Positions 2,701 through 9,341 of a DNA stretch of 21,479 bases are shown piece after piece (positions within the stretch are counted from its first letter, which is position 1; every line of letters starts with the position of its first letter). The notes beneath the pieces were generated by a model. It searched no databases and had not been told where the DNA came from. It saw only the letters and a program-made list of their open reading frames with translations. The translations under genes and the position numbers were made by a program. The stretch is from Marine Group I thaumarchaeote (GTDB lineage Archaea > Thermoproteota > Nitrososphaeria > Nitrososphaerales > Nitrosopumilaceae), in the NCBI GenBank assembly GCA_013390375.1, contig JACATA010000018.1, forward strand, positions 1 to 21,479, given 5' to 3'.

Positions 2701-2762
2701 TTTTTGGCATGACGCTCAAAATAATAAAAAACTAGTATAACGGTGTGATTTTTTTCATAAAG

Positions 2763-2770
2763 TTTTAAAA
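2763..2770 (+). promoter_or_regulatory. TATA-box-like element for the small Cys-rich ORF
   Basis: TTTTAAAA ends 22 nt upstream of the ATG at 2793. This is the same spacing seen for most genes in the window. Confidence 0.45.
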
Positions 2771-2792: not shown

Positions 2793-2939
2793 ATGACAGA
2801 TCAAGCATGTGGCTGTGAAGCCGCTACTGGTGATGACACTTACAAATGTGATTGTGAAATGCAGGGAGCCTGCATTTGTAGTGCAGATTGTTCCTGTGGA
2901 TGTAGCATCTGCAAAGAAGCTGTATCAGGACTGAAATAA
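2793..2939 (+). CDS. Small cysteine-rich (metallothionein-like) protein, 48 aa; not in the ORF track
   Basis: ATG..TAA translates to MTDQACGCEAATGDDTYKCDCEMQGACICSADCSCGCSICKEAVSGLK, with 10 Cys in 48 residues arranged as CxC/CxCxC/CxxC, no His and one aromatic residue. The ORF is visibly less AT-rich than its flanks. It has a TATA-like box at the correct spacing and T6/T5 tracts right after the stop. Confidence 0.6.
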   Translation: MTDQACGCEAATGDDTYKCDCEMQGACICSADCSCGCSICKEAVSGLK

Positions 2940-2948
2940 ATTTCACAA

Positions 2949-2961
2949 TTTTTTCCTTTTT
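2949..2961 (+). terminator. Oligo-T terminator-like tract after the small Cys-rich ORF
   Basis: TTTTTTCCTTTTT starts 10 nt after the TAA. Archaeal terminators are typically oligo-T runs. Confidence 0.4.
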
Positions 2962-2996: not shown

Positions 2997-3182
2997 TTAT
3001 TCCTCTTCTTGCTCAAATCCCCATGAGCTGACTAGTTCTTTTTGAAATGTGTCAGCTTGTTTTTCATTTAATCTATCTCCACAGTTTTTATGCGTTGGAA
3101 CCACAATCAATCCATCAAGCTTGAACTCAACTTCGTAAAAGTGTATTTTTGGGCATTCACACATATCTAATAAATCGAACAT
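2997..3182 (-). CDS. Small hypothetical protein (61 aa) with CxC...H...H..C and an acidic tail
   Basis: ATG-started ORF MFDLLDMCECPKIHFYEVEFKLDGLIVVPTHKNCGDRLNEKQADTFQKELVSSWGFEQEEE. A T5 tract follows the stop. It lies convergent to the Cys-rich ORF. I recognise no family. Confidence 0.45.
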   Translation of the reverse strand: MFDLLDMCECPKIHFYEVEFKLDGLIVVPTHKNCGDRLNEKQADTFQKELVSSWGFEQEEE

Positions 3183-3241: not shown

Positions 3242-4765
3242 ATGCGCAATACAATTTTTATAATTTTATTTTCAATGATTCTTGTTAGTGGTAGCGTTCT
3301 TCCAGCAACATTTGCGGAACATTTGTCTGCTGGTTCTGGTATTGGTGCAGGTCTTGCTGGTGTTAATCTTCCTGGAGCCTGGTATGCGGGCGAAAATCTC
3401 AAAATTGGCGATTACTTCAAGTACAAATTGTGTCATGAGTCATACAAAGACTGCACAGAGTTTTGGTTTTCAATGTGGTTAGAAAAAGAAATACTTGATG
3501 GTCCTGAAGAAATGTTTCGTTTTCAAGTTCTAGTTGAAGACGGAAACAAGGTACTAAAAGGTCATATGGATGTAGGTAAAATTGCTCCCGAGCCTATAGG
3601 TGGTACTGTCAGCGATAATATTTTGCGGTATGCATCTGTATACAAATCATCAATAATATGGCTCTCTTCCTTTGCTACTGCAGACATTGATCAGCCTGGT
3701 AAGGGACCAAAGGCATTCTCCAAGGTTTCATGGGGCAAGATTGCAAATATTGGTGGTGAACAAATTGGGGCTATAGGAATAGAAACCATGACCGTTCCAG
3801 CAGGTGAATATGATACAGTTGTCATTGGTTGGAAGAGTGGCGGCATAACAAGTCACATTTACGTTGTTGATGAATTTCCCTTCCCAGTAAAGGCCAGCAC
3901 ATGGGTTCAGGTGACGGCAGGAATACCTCCGCAGGAATACAGATTTTCATTACATGAATACAAAGAAAATGTTTCTTCAAGTCCGTTTGCAGGTTTTACA
4001 GATACGGAAGAAGCAAAGAAGGATGTTGGTTGTATTACTAATTATAAACTGGTAAAAATTTTTGAAAATACAAATACAAACTCAATGGTTATTAACATAC
4101 AATATGGTCCAGAAAAACCTAGAATTGGATGTGACATTGAATGGGTTATAAATTTTAAGAAAGCATTTTCTACTGACCTGTGGGAAAACCAGGTGCATTA
4201 TGATATTTTAAAAGTTAATCTGATAGATGGCCAAACAATACCAATAGCTTCTGCTGCTGAAGATGAAGGATATGACAAGTTCTTTTCTACCTCAGGACAA
4301 GTGCACAGATATTGGCTTATGCAAGGAGATCCCGGATTGCAAAAATTTGCTGTAATTGTTTATGGCACAGGTCCGGCATACAGCGTACCCAATTCTGAAT
4401 CATTTGGTTATGTAATTCTTGATATTGATCTACAAAGCAAGAAACCAGTATCTGGTAGCCTAGAAACTCTTATTCCCACACAAACAGAACCTGAAATTTC
4501 TATTCCTAGCTGGATTAAAAATAATGCGGGATGGTGGGCTGATGGATTGATTGATGATGCTTCGTTTGTCTCCGGCATACAGTGGCTAATTTCAAATGGT
4601 GTGATAACTATACCACCTACTGAACAAGCAACAGAATCTGACAATGTAATTCCAAGTTGGATTAAGAACAATGCTGGATGGTGGTCTGATGGATCGATTC
4701 CTGATAATGCGTTTGTTTCTGGTCTTCAGTGGCTTATCTCAAACGGCATCATAACGATTTCGTAA
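3242..4765 (+). CDS. Secreted/surface hypothetical protein with two C-terminal 37-aa repeats
   Basis: N-terminal signal-like segment MRNTIFIILFSMILVSGSVLPATFA. TATA-like TTTAACTA (3211-3218) lies 23 nt upstream. The C-terminus carries a tandem IPSWIKNNAGWW.DG.I.D..FVSG.QWLISNG.ITI module. Confidence 0.8.
   Translation: MRNTIFIILFSMILVSGSVLPATFAEHLSAGSGIGAGLAGVNLPGAWYAGENLKIGDYFKYKLCHESYKDCTEFWFSMWLEKEILDGPEEMFRFQVLVEDGNKVLKGHMDVGKIAPEPIGGTVSDNILRYASVYKSSIIWLSSFATADIDQPGKGPKAFSKVSWGKIANIGGEQIGAIGIETMTVPAGEYDTVVIGWKSGGITSHIYVVDEFPFPVKASTWVQVTAGIPPQEYRFSLHEYKENVSSSPFAGFTDTEEAKKDVGCITNYKLVKIFENTNTNSMVINIQYGPEKPRIGCDIEWVINFKKAFSTDLWENQVHYDILKVNLIDGQTIPIASAAEDEGYDKFFSTSGQVHRYWLMQGDPGLQKFAVIVYGTGPAYSVPNSESFGYVILDIDLQSKKPVSGSLETLIPTQTEPEISIPSWIKNNAGWWADGLIDDASFVSGIQWLISNGVITIPPTEQATESDNVIPSWIKNNAGWWSDGSIPDNAFVSGLQWLISNGIITIS
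4502..4759 (+). repeat. Intragenic tandem duplication: two 111-nt (37-aa) units at 4502-4612 and 4649-4759
   Basis: IPSWIKNNAGWWADGLIDDASFVSGIQWLISNGVITI versus IPSWIKNNAGWWSDGSIPDNAFVSGLQWLISNGIITI. The protein units are about 80% identical, while the DNA differs at many synonymous sites. Confidence 0.9.
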
Positions 4766-5766: not shown

Positions 5767-6411
5767 ATGGCATTGCCAATGGACGGTGATTTTGTTCCTG
5801 ACGATGAAAATTCAGAACGAGCTCCGAATGTAGACAGTTATAGAATTACTTGCATTGATTTCATCAAGGATATTTCACAGGACTACATTGCTTGGGTGGA
5901 TCGCTACGAGTTGCCAGAGGAAGAGGATAAAAAAAGACGAACCGAAATAGCTGCAGTTATTGAACGAACCAACGAATGGATTGCCAAAGTTCCACAAACT
6001 TTCAAGGCTGTTGATGTGGTAATGAATGACGGATTACAAAAAATGGCAGAGGCTACAGCTGGAAAGCCATTTCAGATTGGTGTTTTTGTGGACAAAAAGT
6101 CTGGCTATACGCTGGCAAAACCTGGAATTATTGATGTAAACATCAAGGCTTCAGGCAGGGAGAACAATAAAGCGAAGCTTGGGGTCCACGCAAAGGATCA
6201 AAGGTTTAGAATAGAAGCAACTGGGAAAGCATATTTTGATGAGTCAAACATTCCAAAAGATGAGTATGATCTTTTGGACATTAATTTGAAGCTAAACGCT
6301 GAAGAATGTAAACAGCGTGACGTGATATCATTCACTGTTATTGTGAGCGAAATGAAAGATGGAATGGAGATTGATCGACGGGGAGTTAGTACCGTCATTC
6401 ACATTGTTTAG
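5767..6411 (+). CDS. Hypothetical protein
   Basis: 214-codon ATG-started ORF, divergent from the previous gene across 71 nt. I recognise no motifs. Confidence 0.6.
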   Translation: MALPMDGDFVPDDENSERAPNVDSYRITCIDFIKDISQDYIAWVDRYELPEEEDKKRRTEIAAVIERTNEWIAKVPQTFKAVDVVMNDGLQKMAEATAGKPFQIGVFVDKKSGYTLAKPGIIDVNIKASGRENNKAKLGVHAKDQRFRIEATGKAYFDESNIPKDEYDLLDINLKLNAEECKQRDVISFTVIVSEMKDGMEIDRRGVSTVIHIV

Positions 6412-6425
6412 TTTTGATTTAAGAA

Positions 6426-6869
6426 TTAGATTTTATCAAGCAGCTGTTTCTTTTTTGCCTGAAATTCCTTATTGCTAATAATACCTGCCTTTTTCAACTC
6501 GCCTAGTTTTCTGATCAATTCCACATTATCTTCAGAAGATCTAATCATACGTTTTGCCTTTGTGATTTTTTTTGAGACTGTCTTTTTGGCTTGTGCTCTG
6601 ACTTGTTTACTCAGTTTAAGGCCTCTTATTTTTGCCATCTTGCCAATTTTTTGACCCTTCCTCTTAGCTTCGTCTACAGATTCCAAAAGCTTCTCTAAAA
6701 ACTCTTCATCATTTGGCTTGAAACGTCTCTGAAATTCTTTTATGACAAGAATAGGATATGGCGTCCATTCCACATCATTGTAAAATTGTTTGATGTGTTT
6801 ATCCGGAAGTGTCTTTAGATATTTGATAAGAAAGTCCTCAGATTTTTCGTCCACGGATGTATTTTTCAC
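6426..6869 (-). CDS. Hypothetical protein with a C-terminal SHOCT-like domain
   Basis: The C-terminus VELIRKLGELKKAGIISNKEFQAKKKQLL matches the SHOCT consensus (L..L..L...G.I...EF...K..LL), preceded by a Lys-rich linker. GTG start, 31 nt downstream of the rhodanese stop on the same strand, so the two may be co-transcribed. Confidence 0.55.
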   Translation of the reverse strand: MKNTSVDEKSEDFLIKYLKTLPDKHIKQFYNDVEWTPYPILVIKEFQRRFKPNDEEFLEKLLESVDEAKRKGQKIGKMAKIRGLKLSKQVRAQAKKTVSKKITKAKRMIRSSEDNVELIRKLGELKKAGIISNKEFQAKKKQLLDKI

Positions 6870-6900
6870 TCTAGTTATTAATAATGTTCTAAAACATCAC

Positions 6901-7197
6901 TCACGCCTTTTGCCAGGCCATGAATCCGCCTTCAAGGTTCTTTACATTAAATCCTGCCTTGGCTAATTCATCTGCTGCAATATTTCCGCGGTATCCAGAC
7001 CCACAAAAAGTACAAATCTTTTTTTCTTTGAGATCATCAATCTTGCCCTGTTTGATATTTCTTATAACAAGACCCAAGGGCATGTGAGTTGAGCCATCAA
7101 TCGTGCTATTGGCAAATTCATCTTGCTCTCTCACATCAATTACTACGAATTGGTCAAGTGTCTGCTTTAGCTCCGATGCACTGACTGTATCTGCCAT
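6901..7197 (-). CDS. Single-domain rhodanese-like sulfurtransferase
   Basis: VIDVREQDEF...G..H.P and the active-site loop CGSGYRG (CxxGxR), plus GGFMAWQ at the C-terminus. I prefer the ATG at 7197 (MADTVSASEL) to 7206, based on spacing from the shared AT-rich promoter. Confidence 0.85.
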   Translation of the reverse strand: MADTVSASELKQTLDQFVVIDVREQDEFANSTIDGSTHMPLGLVIRNIKQGKIDDLKEKKICTFCGSGYRGNIAADELAKAGFNVKNLEGGFMAWQKA

Positions 7198-7243
7198 AGG
7201 TAACATGGTTATACTTGATATATTAATTCATTATACTAGAAGT

Positions 7244-8302
7244 ATGGCAAAAGAAGCTATCCTTTATGAAAAAAGACCTAATGACAAGGTTTTGTGTACA
7301 GCGTGTGCTAGGTATTGTGAGATAGGGAAAGGACAGATTGGCCTTTGTGGTATAAGGGGAAATGAAAATGGGAAGCTTGATCTTTACGTTTATGGTAAAG
7401 TTATCGCAGGTCACGTTGACCCAATAGAAAAGAAACCTGTAATTCATTATAATCCTGGAAGCAAGATTTTCTCAATCGCAACCACCGGATGTAACTGGCT
7501 TTGCAAGTATTGTCAAAATTCAGACATCAGCCAGAGACGCAAAGTCGAGGGTGTTGATATGACACCAGAAGAGGTAGCAAATACTGCAGTTGAGTATGGT
7601 GCACAAGGGATAGCGTATACCTACAACCAGCCCTCAATATTCATCGAATTTGCTCGTGACTGTGGCATAGCTGCTAGAAAGAGGGGTCTCTTTAACATCT
7701 TTGTCTCAAATGGCTATGATACGCCAGAAGTAGTCAAGATGATGGATGAGTTCTTGGATTGTATCACTGTTGACTTTAAGGGAAGTGCAGAGCCAGACTT
7801 TACCAGAAAATTCATTGGGGTACCGGATCCCCAGCCAATATTTGACACCATTCTGGAAATCAGAGACAAGACAAAGATTCACACGGAGATTACAGACTTG
7901 ATAGTTCCACAGGTAGGTGACAACCTTGAGCATGCAAGAAAGCTTGCAAAGTTTGTCTATGATGAGTTAGGTCCGGAAACTGTAATTCACTTTTTGCGGT
8001 TCCATCCTGATTACAAGATGATGGAGTATCCATCTACGCCGGTCAAGACTTTGGAAAAGCATTATGAAATTGCAAAAAGCGAGGGACTTAAGTATGTATA
8101 CCTGGGAAACGTTCCGGGACATCCGTGGGAACACACCTACTGTGCAGGATGCAACGAAATTGTCGTGAAAAGATTTGGCTTTGACATACAGGAATGGCAT
8201 CTTGACAAAAACAACAAGTGCAAATTTTGTGGAAATCAGATACCAATTACAGGTCAGCTCGCCAAGGGCTACAAGCAGGAAAGATTTCAGTTTGTGGTAT
8301 AA
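7244..8302 (+). CDS. amrS: AmmeMemoRadiSam system radical SAM enzyme
   Basis: MAKEAILYEK...CTACARYCEIGKGQIGLCG (N-terminal Cys cluster), EKKPVIHYNPGSKIFSIATTGCNWLCKYCQN (CxxxCxxC) and the C-terminal CAGC...CKFC ribbon. The ORF-track N-terminal extension (7103-7243) is antisense to the rhodanese gene and I reject it. Confidence 0.85.
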   Translation: MAKEAILYEKRPNDKVLCTACARYCEIGKGQIGLCGIRGNENGKLDLYVYGKVIAGHVDPIEKKPVIHYNPGSKIFSIATTGCNWLCKYCQNSDISQRRKVEGVDMTPEEVANTAVEYGAQGIAYTYNQPSIFIEFARDCGIAARKRGLFNIFVSNGYDTPEVVKMMDEFLDCITVDFKGSAEPDFTRKFIGVPDPQPIFDTILEIRDKTKIHTEITDLIVPQVGDNLEHARKLAKFVYDELGPETVIHFLRFHPDYKMMEYPSTPVKTLEKHYEIAKSEGLKYVYLGNVPGHPWEHTYCAGCNEIVVKRFGFDIQEWHLDKNNKCKFCGNQIPITGQLAKGYKQERFQFVV

Positions 8303-8339
8303 TCTATCTGCTAGTGTATAATTTTCAAACTGGCGTTGA

Positions 8340-8347
8340 TTTTTTTT
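8340..8347 (+). terminator. Oligo-T (T8) terminator-like tract after amrS
   Basis: A run of 8 T starts 38 nt after the amrS stop. Confidence 0.35.
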
Positions 8348-8390
8348 CTTTATGGAATATTTCTTTTTAAAGATCATCAAAGATACTATA

Positions 8391-9341
8391 ATGTTGAAAT
8401 CTAATTCGGCAAATCTACTGTTGATACTTACCGCTGTCTCCCTATTTTTGATTACAAGCATTGTAACTGTTCAAGCAGAAATGAAGAATGGCGATAACTT
8501 GAACCTACACTATACTGTAGGTGATAAGGTTACGCTCTCATTTTCACCAGTTTTACCTGTAATTCACGTTGATCATCAAGTCGTGGTAGCAAAAGACGGT
8601 AATGAGATATGGAGTCAAACCTTCCATGATCATGACGGGAACTTGGAAATTGAAATTACACCTACTGACAGTTCATCGTTTTCAGTAACAGGCGGTGCAG
8701 ATATTGGTGGCAAAACCTCGACTGGCGCTTTTATGGTTTCTGGACCTGTTTTTAACGAAATGGGTACATATTCTGTCACGGGCACTATAACAGGAATAGA
8801 ATTCATTCCGTTACCAATTCCATTAGCAGACGAATTTAGTATCGAGATTGCTGGTAGTGAAGAGATGGACATGGGTGGCATGGAAATGAAGAGCATGGGA
8901 GAGCATCAAGTAAGTGCCATTTCTTCTGATGGTTCACTCATAGTTAACGTAGATACAAGTGACCCGGTTGCAGGAGAAATGATGTCAGTCACGGTCACAA
9001 TTACTACTGACAAGAAAGTTCACCAGACGAATGCAAACTATGACATTATAATCACCCAAGATGGAAAAACAGTTCTTTCAGAAACAGATGTGTATACAAC
9101 TCACGGCGAGGGTGAACACATGACTGATGTACTAGAATCTAGTAATCCAGTAGACGTTCAAGTCACCTTACAGGGAATCGGAAAGCCTGGTGAGCTCAAA
9201 ACTGGTGCAATGGGCGAAGCAATATCATTCCACGTAGTTCCAGAATTTGGAACAATTGCCATGATAGTATTGGCAGTGGCCGTAGTCAGCATCATAGCAA
9301 TCACTGCAAAGACAAAGATAGCCCTAATCCCAAAACTTTAG
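8391..9341 (+). CDS. PEFG-CTERM sorting-domain secreted protein, Met/His-rich, two related beta-rich domains
   Basis: Signal peptide MLKSNSANLLLILTAVSLFLITSIVTVQA from the ATG at 8391. The C-terminus VVPEFGTIAMIVLAVAVVSIIAITAKTK is the PEFG motif followed by a TM helix and a basic tail. Internal motifs are HVDHQVVVAKDGNEIWSQTFHDHDGN and NANYDIIITQDGKTVLSETDVYTTHGEGEH. Confidence 0.8.
   Translation: MLKSNSANLLLILTAVSLFLITSIVTVQAEMKNGDNLNLHYTVGDKVTLSFSPVLPVIHVDHQVVVAKDGNEIWSQTFHDHDGNLEIEITPTDSSSFSVTGGADIGGKTSTGAFMVSGPVFNEMGTYSVTGTITGIEFIPLPIPLADEFSIEIAGSEEMDMGGMEMKSMGEHQVSAISSDGSLIVNVDTSDPVAGEMMSVTVTITTDKKVHQTNANYDIIITQDGKTVLSETDVYTTHGEGEHMTDVLESSNPVDVQVTLQGIGKPGELKTGAMGEAISFHVVPEFGTIAMIVLAVAVVSIIAITAKTKIALIPKL

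Follow-up and report, generated by a model that had tools for sequence, protein, structure and literature searches.

Positions 1 to 21,479 (21,479 nucleotides, nt) of contig JACATA010000018.1 of a Marine Group I thaumarchaeote (family Nitrosopumilaceae, assembly GCA_013390375.1), a stretch which we call the window, contain at positions 2793 to 2939 of the forward strand an open reading frame (ORF) for a 48 amino acid (aa), cysteine-rich protein. This ORF is a genuine protein-coding gene with its own transcription. It belongs to a family, called Cys9 below, which is under strong purifying selection, is confined to the Nitrosopumilaceae lineage, and comes in two forms, a stand-alone protein and a module placed at the C-terminal end of a larger membrane protein. 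From the arrangement of its cysteines we propose, with a probability of about 0.6, that Cys9 is a cytoplasmic module of metallothionein (MT) type, binding a metal-thiolate cluster either free or tethered to the membrane. A role in metal buffering or as a chaperone is graded lower than cluster binding itself.

A short gene under purifying selection

The ORF, from ATG 2793 to the TAA at 2937-2939, is translated as MTDQACGCEAATGDDTYKCDCEMQGACICSADCSCGCSICKEAVSGLK, which is exactly the product given in the original prediction, a note made by a model from the DNA letters. Ten of the 48 residues are cysteines (20.8%; positions 6, 8, 19, 21, 27, 29, 33, 35, 37 and 40), and the prediction had counted them correctly for the window copy. 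None of the other ORFs has as high a cysteine share, out of 118 in the window that are 40 aa or longer, the runner-up reaching 15%. With the base composition of the window, 1.4 cysteine codons are expected, and the probability of finding at least 10 in 48 is around 1×10−6. The G+C content is 0.41-0.47 within the ORF versus 0.23-0.31 in the flanks, as could be foreseen from the earlier remark that the ORF is less AT-rich than its surroundings. Two other statements have to be qualified. The ORF had been called unlisted, and it is indeed missing from the ORF list, but a length cut-off is the sole reason for this, and it appears once the minimum is lowered. The reported lack of histidine is correct for the window copy, but orthologs often have a His at position 26 and/or 31.

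When one genome per species (GTDB) was scanned for the pattern, 112 genomes proved to encode a relative. Eighty loci were retained, from Nitrosopumilus, Nitrosarchaeum, Nitrosopelagicus, Cenarchaeum, Nitrosotenuis and other Nitrosopumilaceae. Residue conservation and the ratio of non-synonymous to synonymous substitution rates (dN/dS, Nei-Gojobori) were computed over 73 unique nucleotide sequences. An ORF of 47-49 codons starting with ATG is intact at all 80 loci, and frame +1 is the sole frame open throughout 75 of 75 unique sequences. The dN/dS ratio is about 0.11 for a median dS of about 1.0, omega being below 1 for all pairs, and variability at codon positions 1, 2 and 3 is 0.09, 0.10 and 0.28, respectively. 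The original prediction had named an intact frame, a dN/dS below 1 and conserved cysteine columns as the points to look at. The first two came out as anticipated, and the third in part: nine cysteines are invariant, but the tenth, Cys37, is present in only 19 of the 73 sequences and is otherwise replaced by T, V or S. Identity of the peptide to the window copy has a median of 75% and a minimum of 68%, to be compared with 50% and 30% for the 291-aa product of the upstream neighbour at the same loci. No Rfam match was found over the peptide gene, and its RNA fold is not significant (z = −1.5).

Over 7.9 kb, the window shares 96.5% identity with the single-cell genome of Marine Group I thaumarchaeote N8 AC-661-N08. 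An exhaustive profile search over 1.84 billion representative proteins returned no more than 25 representatives (50% identity), all of which belong to the Cys9 family. One locus, L015, is a 720 bp contig with a coverage of 0.73 from a bacterial assembly (JAZHEE010000103.1, ‘Rosenbergiella sp. YN46’) that carries this thaumarchaeal gene. Its presence there is almost certainly due to contamination.

The residues invariant in the stand-alone family are M1, D3, Q4, A5, C6, G7, C8, E9, A10, G13, D14, Y17, C19, D20, C21, M23, Q24, C27, C29, D32, C33, C35, C40, E42 and V44, and the core spacing is CGC-x10-CDCxMQxxCxC-x3-CxC-x4-C. When divergent and fused members are included, the signature becomes A-C-G-C-x9/10-C-D-C-x-M-Q-x2-C-x-C-x3-C-x-C-x4-C, the A-C-G-C being kept in the divergent and fused subfamily as well. 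Cysteines are thus arranged in four or five CxC motifs, and CxxC is absent except in the subclade that has Cys37. Ala and His alternate among orthologs at positions 26 and 31; counting Cys and His together, an ortholog has 9 to 12 likely ligands, depending on Cys37, His26 and His31. The peptide has a net charge of about −6. Its metal-free AlphaFold2 model, with a mean predicted local distance difference test score (pLDDT) of 70, has two short helices, spanning residues 20-24 and 38-47. A Foldseek search with this model found no match in the PDB.

The peptide gene forms a transcription unit by itself, between a TATA box and an oligo-T terminator of its own (Table 1). The octamer TTTTAAAA ends 22 nt before the ATG, at the position indicated in the original prediction, and a (T/C)TTAAA(A) element is found at this fixed site in 73/73 unique stand-alone upstream regions, for a background of 0.7%. 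It is TTTAAA, ending 22-25 nt before the ATG, in 62 of the 73, and CTTAAAA at the same place in 11. The intergenic sequence around this element diverges freely among the stand-alone copies. It had also been claimed that about a dozen genes of the window share this spacing. This is not true of the exact octamer, of which the window has two copies where chance would give 3.8, and which stands before no other gene at that distance, but it is loosely true of A/T-only stretches of at least 6 bases, which end 18-27 nt before the start of about 15 of 25 window genes. The distance from TATA box to transcription start that is usual in Archaea puts the start here on the ATG or no more than a few bases from it, and because of this spacing the peptide mRNA is probably leaderless or nearly so. 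No Shine-Dalgarno-like or other ribosome-binding sequence is visible upstream of the ATG. The T6 and T5 tracts which the prediction had noticed after the stop codon are present, and a run of at least five T within 60 nt of the stop is found at 74 of 77 unique loci, versus 25% of random 60-nt windows.

In the compact Nitrosopelagicus genome, the promoter of the peptide gene overlaps the end of the upstream gene. At loci L060, L064 and L083 the upstream gene, encoding about 300 aa, ends 24 nt before the peptide ATG, so that its stop codon lies inside the TATA element (cCTTAAAAc).

Free and membrane-tethered forms of the module

At 6 of the 80 loci (L004, L027, L029, L030, L032 and L036) there is no TATA box, and a long ORF runs in frame into the module, which forms its C-terminal end. 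The carrier of locus L030 (3762-5147, 461 aa) consists of a signal peptide, an ectodomain of about 330 aa, a Thr/Pro stalk, a transmembrane helix, a basic stretch and a tail of about 90 aa, followed by the Cys9 module. The tail is conserved and contains a Pro/Gln linker. Such carriers form a large family of type-I membrane proteins of about 460 aa from Nitrosopumilus, with 2,548 clusters, in which the stalk has the motif TPTPPEGYATTSTG and the tail the pattern GIDPSRL.GYQTSASSGGYQTNRGEAQL.DD..Y..TR.VY, and the module ends 120 of the 120 best carrier members (448-479 aa; P0156-P0275). In about 70% of carriers it is of the type ‘EEAACGCAAS...CDCEMQG.CLCD.TC.C....CKEQV’, with no Met at the junction, and in about 30% it is of a type resembling the stand-alone protein, ‘M[LIVT]DQACGCEAD...’. 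The ectodomain has no Pfam match, sub-threshold noise aside, and the AlphaFold2 model of the full 461-aa fusion was unusable (pLDDT 34.5). Applying the positive-inside rule to the carrier, the module is predicted to be cytoplasmic. A third, rarer architecture is represented by the metagenomic protein P0145 (129 aa), in which two N-terminal transmembrane helices and a His-rich linker (KKYPHGSHVESHSS) precede the Cys9 module, with an N-in/C-in topology.

Free and fused genes are found together in a closed genome and in a genome bin. On the closed, 1.87-Mb chromosome OZ244732.1, a free gene in its usual context and a fused gene are about 1.7 Mb apart, and 134 of 147 nt are identical between their modules (L092 4001-4207 versus L030 5001-5207). 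In a second genome bin, 138 of 150 nt are identical (L011 versus L004). This amounts to 91-92% nt identity between free and fused copies within a genome, versus 85-86% (125-127 of 147) between free orthologs of different species. The likeness spans the ATG and extends some 30 nt beyond the stop, into the terminator. We read this pattern as the likely signature of gene conversion or recent copying, which would imply that free and tethered modules are functionally the same. Alternatively, the free gene may recently have replaced an older module of ‘EEAACGCAAS’ type in the carrier. The neighbours of the fused paralog encode a serpin, CofC, CofD and a methyltransferase, and give no hint of a metal.

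The case for a metal-thiolate cluster and its rivals

A metal-thiolate cluster is the best reading of the family because the nine invariant cysteines are paired in CxC motifs, CxxC is rare, no iron-sulphur (Fe-S) motif is found, the module is predicted to be cytoplasmic, and extra ligands come and go among orthologs. Variation in ligand number of this sort is familiar from MT families, and Cu(I) clusters are carried by Cu-thioneins and by the Cys-rich tail of yeast Ctr1. The nine thiolates would wrap a small polynuclear cluster, either one of the M(II)3Cys9 type known from the MT beta-domain or a Cu(I)4-6 thiolate cluster, with Cu(I), Zn(II) or Cd(II) as candidate metals. Depending on the ortholog, Cys37 and/or His26 and His31 may join the cluster, and Met23 and Asp20 may take part. 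The peptide would then be a metallothionein-like cytoplasmic binder that buffers metal or hands it over, and the cell would hold a soluble and a membrane-anchored pool of one and the same cluster module.

The protein agrees with a broad description of metallothioneins by its 48 aa, its 21% cysteine, its CxC motifs and its nine invariant cysteines. The nearest sequence likeness is to the beta-domain of vertebrate MTs. Three of 30 scanned members touch the Pfam model PF00131 (Metallothionein), with a best E-value of 0.034, and none is above the curated threshold. BLASTP against human MT4 gave E=0.006 in a single comparison, and hhalign against six vertebrate MTs gave a probability of 40.7%. Residues 18-36 align without gap to vertebrate MT residues 4-22 (19 columns), and within this segment residues 19-35 match the CxC-x5-CxC-x3-CxC of the beta-domain (MT 5-21). 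Cys 6, 8 and 40 are placed otherwise than the remaining beta-domain cysteines, and the two-domain layout of vertebrate MTs is replaced by a single unit of 47-49 aa with 9-10 Cys. Judged from these alignments, the likeness to vertebrate MT is one of motif and chemistry, without demonstrable homology. Many members have been automatically named ‘metallothionein 4’ by JGI/IMG, a label that is probably explained by the resemblance to the beta-domain motif. Coming from an independent pipeline, we counted it in favour of the MT-type reading. Other models gave nothing: the window protein has no Pfam family at E≤10 and no NCBIfam match, and none of the 30 members matches SmtA/BmtA (PF02069) at E≤10 or was placed in a family by either database. 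The metallothionein-like character announced in the original prediction is the best reading available, given the cysteine content, the four or five CxC motifs and the beta-domain spacing, but the protein falls into no established MT sequence family. Nor is it a free peptide only, since it is also the regular C-terminal domain of a membrane protein, an arrangement that suits a folded cluster domain with a partner no less than a plain metal buffer.

Several observations weigh against a metallothionein-type module. No significant likeness to any MT family was found in Pfam or NCBIfam; in the PDB, a sequence search found no MT and the family profile no MT chain at E≤10, SmtA included; and the profile search over 1.84 billion proteins recruited no bacterial or eukaryotic MT. 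No metal-related gene adjoins the free or the fused copy, and no expression, proteomic or metal-binding reports were found in the literature. Classical MTs have few aromatic residues or His and little conservation outside the cysteines, whereas 26 of 44 columns are invariant here, Tyr17 among them, and His is often present. The net charge is negative, rather than the protein being Lys-rich as classical MTs are, and two short helices are predicted. The invariant non-Cys residues, the acidity and the helices are as compatible with a rigid cluster domain that has a partner as with a buffer. Finally, retention of the gene in the streamlined, 1.23-Mb genome of N. brevis suggests a housekeeping role rather than detoxification.

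These points lead to the first alternative, in which Cys9 is a structural module of Zn3Cys9 type (compare pre-SET and Tesmin-CXC). It would be a rigid acidic domain that binds a partner, the free and tethered forms competing for this partner or recruiting it, and no buffering would be involved. The exceptional conservation across genera of D3, Q4, A5, G7, E9, A10, G13, D14, Y17, D20, M23, Q24, D32, K41, E42 and V44 would suit such a domain, as would the acidic surface, the location at the end of the conserved cytoplasmic tail of the carrier, and the retention in a streamlined genome. A weak profile match in the PDB, to a UBR-box zinc finger (E=0.019), goes in the same direction; being marginal, it was taken as composition-driven and the UBR-box assignment was rejected. 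However, the Pre-SET and TCR/CXC models of Pfam match neither the peptide nor any of the 30 members, which have the nine cysteines but a different spacing; a cluster of like chemistry may nevertheless be present. A variable ligand count (Cys37, His26, His31) is easier to reconcile with a metal load that can be adjusted than with a fixed scaffold, and no candidate partner was identified. On balance we consider the structural module unlikely, although it is the alternative that fares best.

A very small Fe-S protein, electron carrier or sensor, with one or two clusters on some of the nine cysteines, appears distinctly improbable. Clostridial ferredoxins are acidic proteins of about 55 aa, which the archaeal peptide resembles in size, in charge (about −6) and in cysteine count, and its apparent housekeeping distribution would be compatible with such a function. 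Yet it has no CxxCxxCxxxCP or other known Fe-S motif, and neither Pfam nor NCBIfam returned a Fer4 or other Fe-S match. Its CxC pairs are what thiolate clusters usually have, in contrast to cubane ligation, and a module at the tail of a membrane protein devoid of redox domains is not where such a carrier would be looked for.

The original prediction had mentioned, and judged unlikely, a Cys-rich precursor of a ribosomally synthesised and post-translationally modified peptide (RiPP) of the SCIFF/ranthipeptide kind, matured by a radical S-adenosylmethionine (SAM) enzyme. The peptide is short and Cys-rich, and a radical-SAM ORF (7103-8302) does lie 4.2 kb downstream, but this gene accompanies the peptide at only 3 of the 80 loci. 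As the prediction had observed for the window, no maturase is adjacent, and this is so at every locus. NCBIfam, SCIFF models included, gave no match, the peptide is evenly conserved and shows no division into leader and core, and a C-terminal domain of a 460-aa membrane protein is at odds with a leader-core precursor. We rejected this explanation as most improbable. A spurious ORF, an alternative frame or a non-coding RNA element, for which the short length is the one argument, is refuted by codon-level conservation: the other frames are not open, variation is concentrated at third positions under the low dN/dS given above, and neither Rfam nor the fold z-score speaks for an RNA.

Returning to the metal-thiolate cluster, the nature of the metal can be discussed. 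The marine Nitrosopumilaceae, which count among the Earth's most abundant microbes, draw their energy by means of copper enzymes. Copper is an attractive candidate because ammonia-oxidising archaea (AOA) depend on it. The frequent His, and the fact that oligotrophic, streamlined genomes keep the gene, would suit zinc equally well. A CopA and copper-chaperone cluster has been reported in Nitrososphaera, and not in group I.1a AOA (PMC4084955), and a chaperone not yet identified has been inferred for N. maritimus (PMC7785015). This allows a wider proposal, which we put forward tentatively and hold to be less probable than cluster binding alone: Cys9 could be the first metallothionein-type family of Archaea and fill, as a cytoplasmic buffer and chaperone for Cu(I) or Zn, the gap left in the ocean's most abundant ammonia oxidisers by their lack of CopZ and CopA, with a soluble form and a membrane tail receiving or delivering metal, the two being kept alike by gene conversion.

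The gene itself is already known, in that it is present in public annotations, and its MT-like look is known through the automatic label. The orthologs are hypothetical proteins at NCBI (for instance AJA92490.1 of Ca. Nitrosopelagicus brevis CN25), which agrees with the earlier statement that this is not an established annotated family, the JGI/IMG label being what that statement had missed. What is undescribed is the family as such, with its Cys9 signature, its confinement to Nitrosopumilaceae and its occurrence in both a free and a tethered architecture. Our literature search found no description of an archaeal or AOA metallothionein, of this small protein, or of its expression, and in a 2020 review (PMC7558416) bacterial MTs (SmtA/BmtA, MymT) are called rare and archaeal ones are not mentioned. 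The Cys9 protein is a concrete candidate for intracellular Cu/Zn buffering and routing in marine Nitrosopumilaceae. If metal binding is true, it would constitute a new metallothionein family, the first from Archaea so far as our searches show, and a new small metal-cluster domain for databases. The gene could also serve as a marker of metal status in ocean metatranscriptomes. If Cys9 were instead a structural Zn-cluster module, it would still be an undescribed conserved domain, linking a free mini-protein and a membrane protein.

Surroundings of the gene and comparison with known systems

The positions of the gene, of its motifs and of the elements around it are collected in Table 1.

Table 1. 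Coordinates, in the window, of the Cys9 gene and of nearby features.
Feature	Position	Strand	Basis or remark
tRNA gene, between the 228-aa and 291-aa ORFs	1623-1698	−	Rfam RF00005, 60 bits
TATA box TTTTAAAA (2763-2770) with A-rich, BRE-like (transcription factor B recognition element) stretch directly upstream	2756-2770	+	conserved position in stand-alone copies
Cys9 coding sequence (48 aa) with its stop codon	2793-2939	+	translation, intact frame in relatives, dN/dS
N-terminal CGC (Cys6-Gly7-Cys8), within the invariant D-Q-A-C-G-C-E-A	2808-2816	+	73/73 unique sequences
Core C19-D-C21-x-M23-Q24-x2-C27-x-C29-x3-C33-x-C35	2847-2897	+	six Cys, D20, M23, Q24 and D32 invariant
Cys37 (tenth Cys, lineage-specific) and invariant Cys40 (73/73), followed by conserved K-E-A-V modelled as helix	2901-2912	+	alignment, AlphaFold2
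Oligo-T tracts T6 (2949-2954), CC, T5 (2957-2961), beginning 10 nt past the stop	2949-2961	+	archaeal terminator signal
Convergent gene of about 55 aa, likely true start Met7 at 3164	2997-3182	−	ends 57 nt past the peptide stop

The free gene is found in a conserved order: tRNA-intron endonuclease, unknown gene, unknown 291-aa gene, peptide, convergent 55-aa gene, secreted protein of about 500 aa and TPR protein, with L10e also in the conserved region. Because gene order is conserved all along this region, adjacency to the peptide gene carries no specific functional signal. The 291-aa upstream protein has no relatives in Pfam, NCBIfam or the PDB, and its cysteines form no conserved cluster.

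The convergent gene of about 55 aa is likewise genuine and extremely conserved. It is present at 56 of the 80 loci, even at the most divergent ones, L090 and L094, whereas the N. brevis CN25 locus lacks it. Its product follows the pattern MCEC..vH.yEVEFK..GM.VvPTHKNCG..L.eKQ...KsWG, then an acidic tail. C2, C4, H8, H25 and C28 are near-invariant and resemble a Cys3His2 metal site, and there is no Pfam or NCBIfam match. Further downstream, the gene at 3242-4765 (+) encodes a conserved secreted protein of 507 aa, whose C-terminal part ends in two tandem repeats of about 36 aa, at ~4530-4762 (IPSWIKNNAGWW.DG.I.D..FVSG.QWLISNG.ITI); it too is without a Pfam or NCBIfam match. The segment from about 6400 to 8500 resembles a variable island: a SHOCT-domain ORF (6426-6869), the radical-SAM ORF and their neighbours have homologs at only 2-6 of the 80 loci, which are otherwise syntenic.

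Among known systems, the beta-domain of vertebrate MTs (PF00131; human MT4) is likewise small and Cys-rich, with nine cysteines and the same CxC-x5-CxC-x3-CxC. These nine cysteines build an M(II)3Cys9 or a Cu(I)6Cys9 cluster. Vertebrate MTs are, however, Lys-rich proteins of about 61 aa with two domains (beta Cys9 and alpha Cys11, 20 Cys), whereas the archaeal protein is single-domain and acidic, has an invariant Tyr, an invariant Met and other invariant non-Cys residues, and is also used as the tail of a membrane protein.

The bacterial metallothioneins SmtA/BmtA and MymT, reviewed in PMC7558416, are like the archaeal family prokaryotic, about 50 aa long, restricted to certain lineages and easily missed in annotation; MymT of M. 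tuberculosis, a 4.9 kDa Cu(I)-binding protein, was itself once a non-annotated small ORF (PMC7558416). MymT also resembles the proposed archaeal binder in being a cytoplasmic Cu(I) binder of a copper-stressed organism. SmtA (Zn4Cys9His2) has nine Cys and two His, a ligand inventory shared by the orthologs having both His26 and His31, but its fold is zinc-finger-like with CxxC elements, and it has no sequence similarity to the archaeal family. The latter is also far more conserved than bacterial MTs, which are called highly variable in the same review (PMC7558416).

The copper store Csp is present, together with CopZ and CopA1/2, in the soil AOA Nitrososphaera viennensis (PMC7785015). Csp1 and Csp3 are Cys-rich Cu(I) stores, cytoplasmic or periplasmic, of copper-dependent ammonia or methane oxidisers, so that the niche could be shared with Cys9. 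The proteins themselves differ: Csp, with about 120 aa, folds into a four-helix bundle whose core is lined by cysteines, and has no similarity to a 48-aa protein with CxC motifs.

As for the fused form, the cytoplasmic, Cys-rich C-terminal tail of yeast Ctr1 binds a Cu(I)4-thiolate cluster, and the plant metal pumps HMA2/4 also have Cys-rich tails; such a module would hold metal and hand it on at the membrane. Unlike these proteins, the archaeal carrier is single-pass, has a large ectodomain and is no recognisable transporter, and the sequences are unrelated. Such tails nevertheless provide its closest analogue, which would be that of a metal-thiolate module placed at the cytoplasmic C-terminus of a membrane protein.

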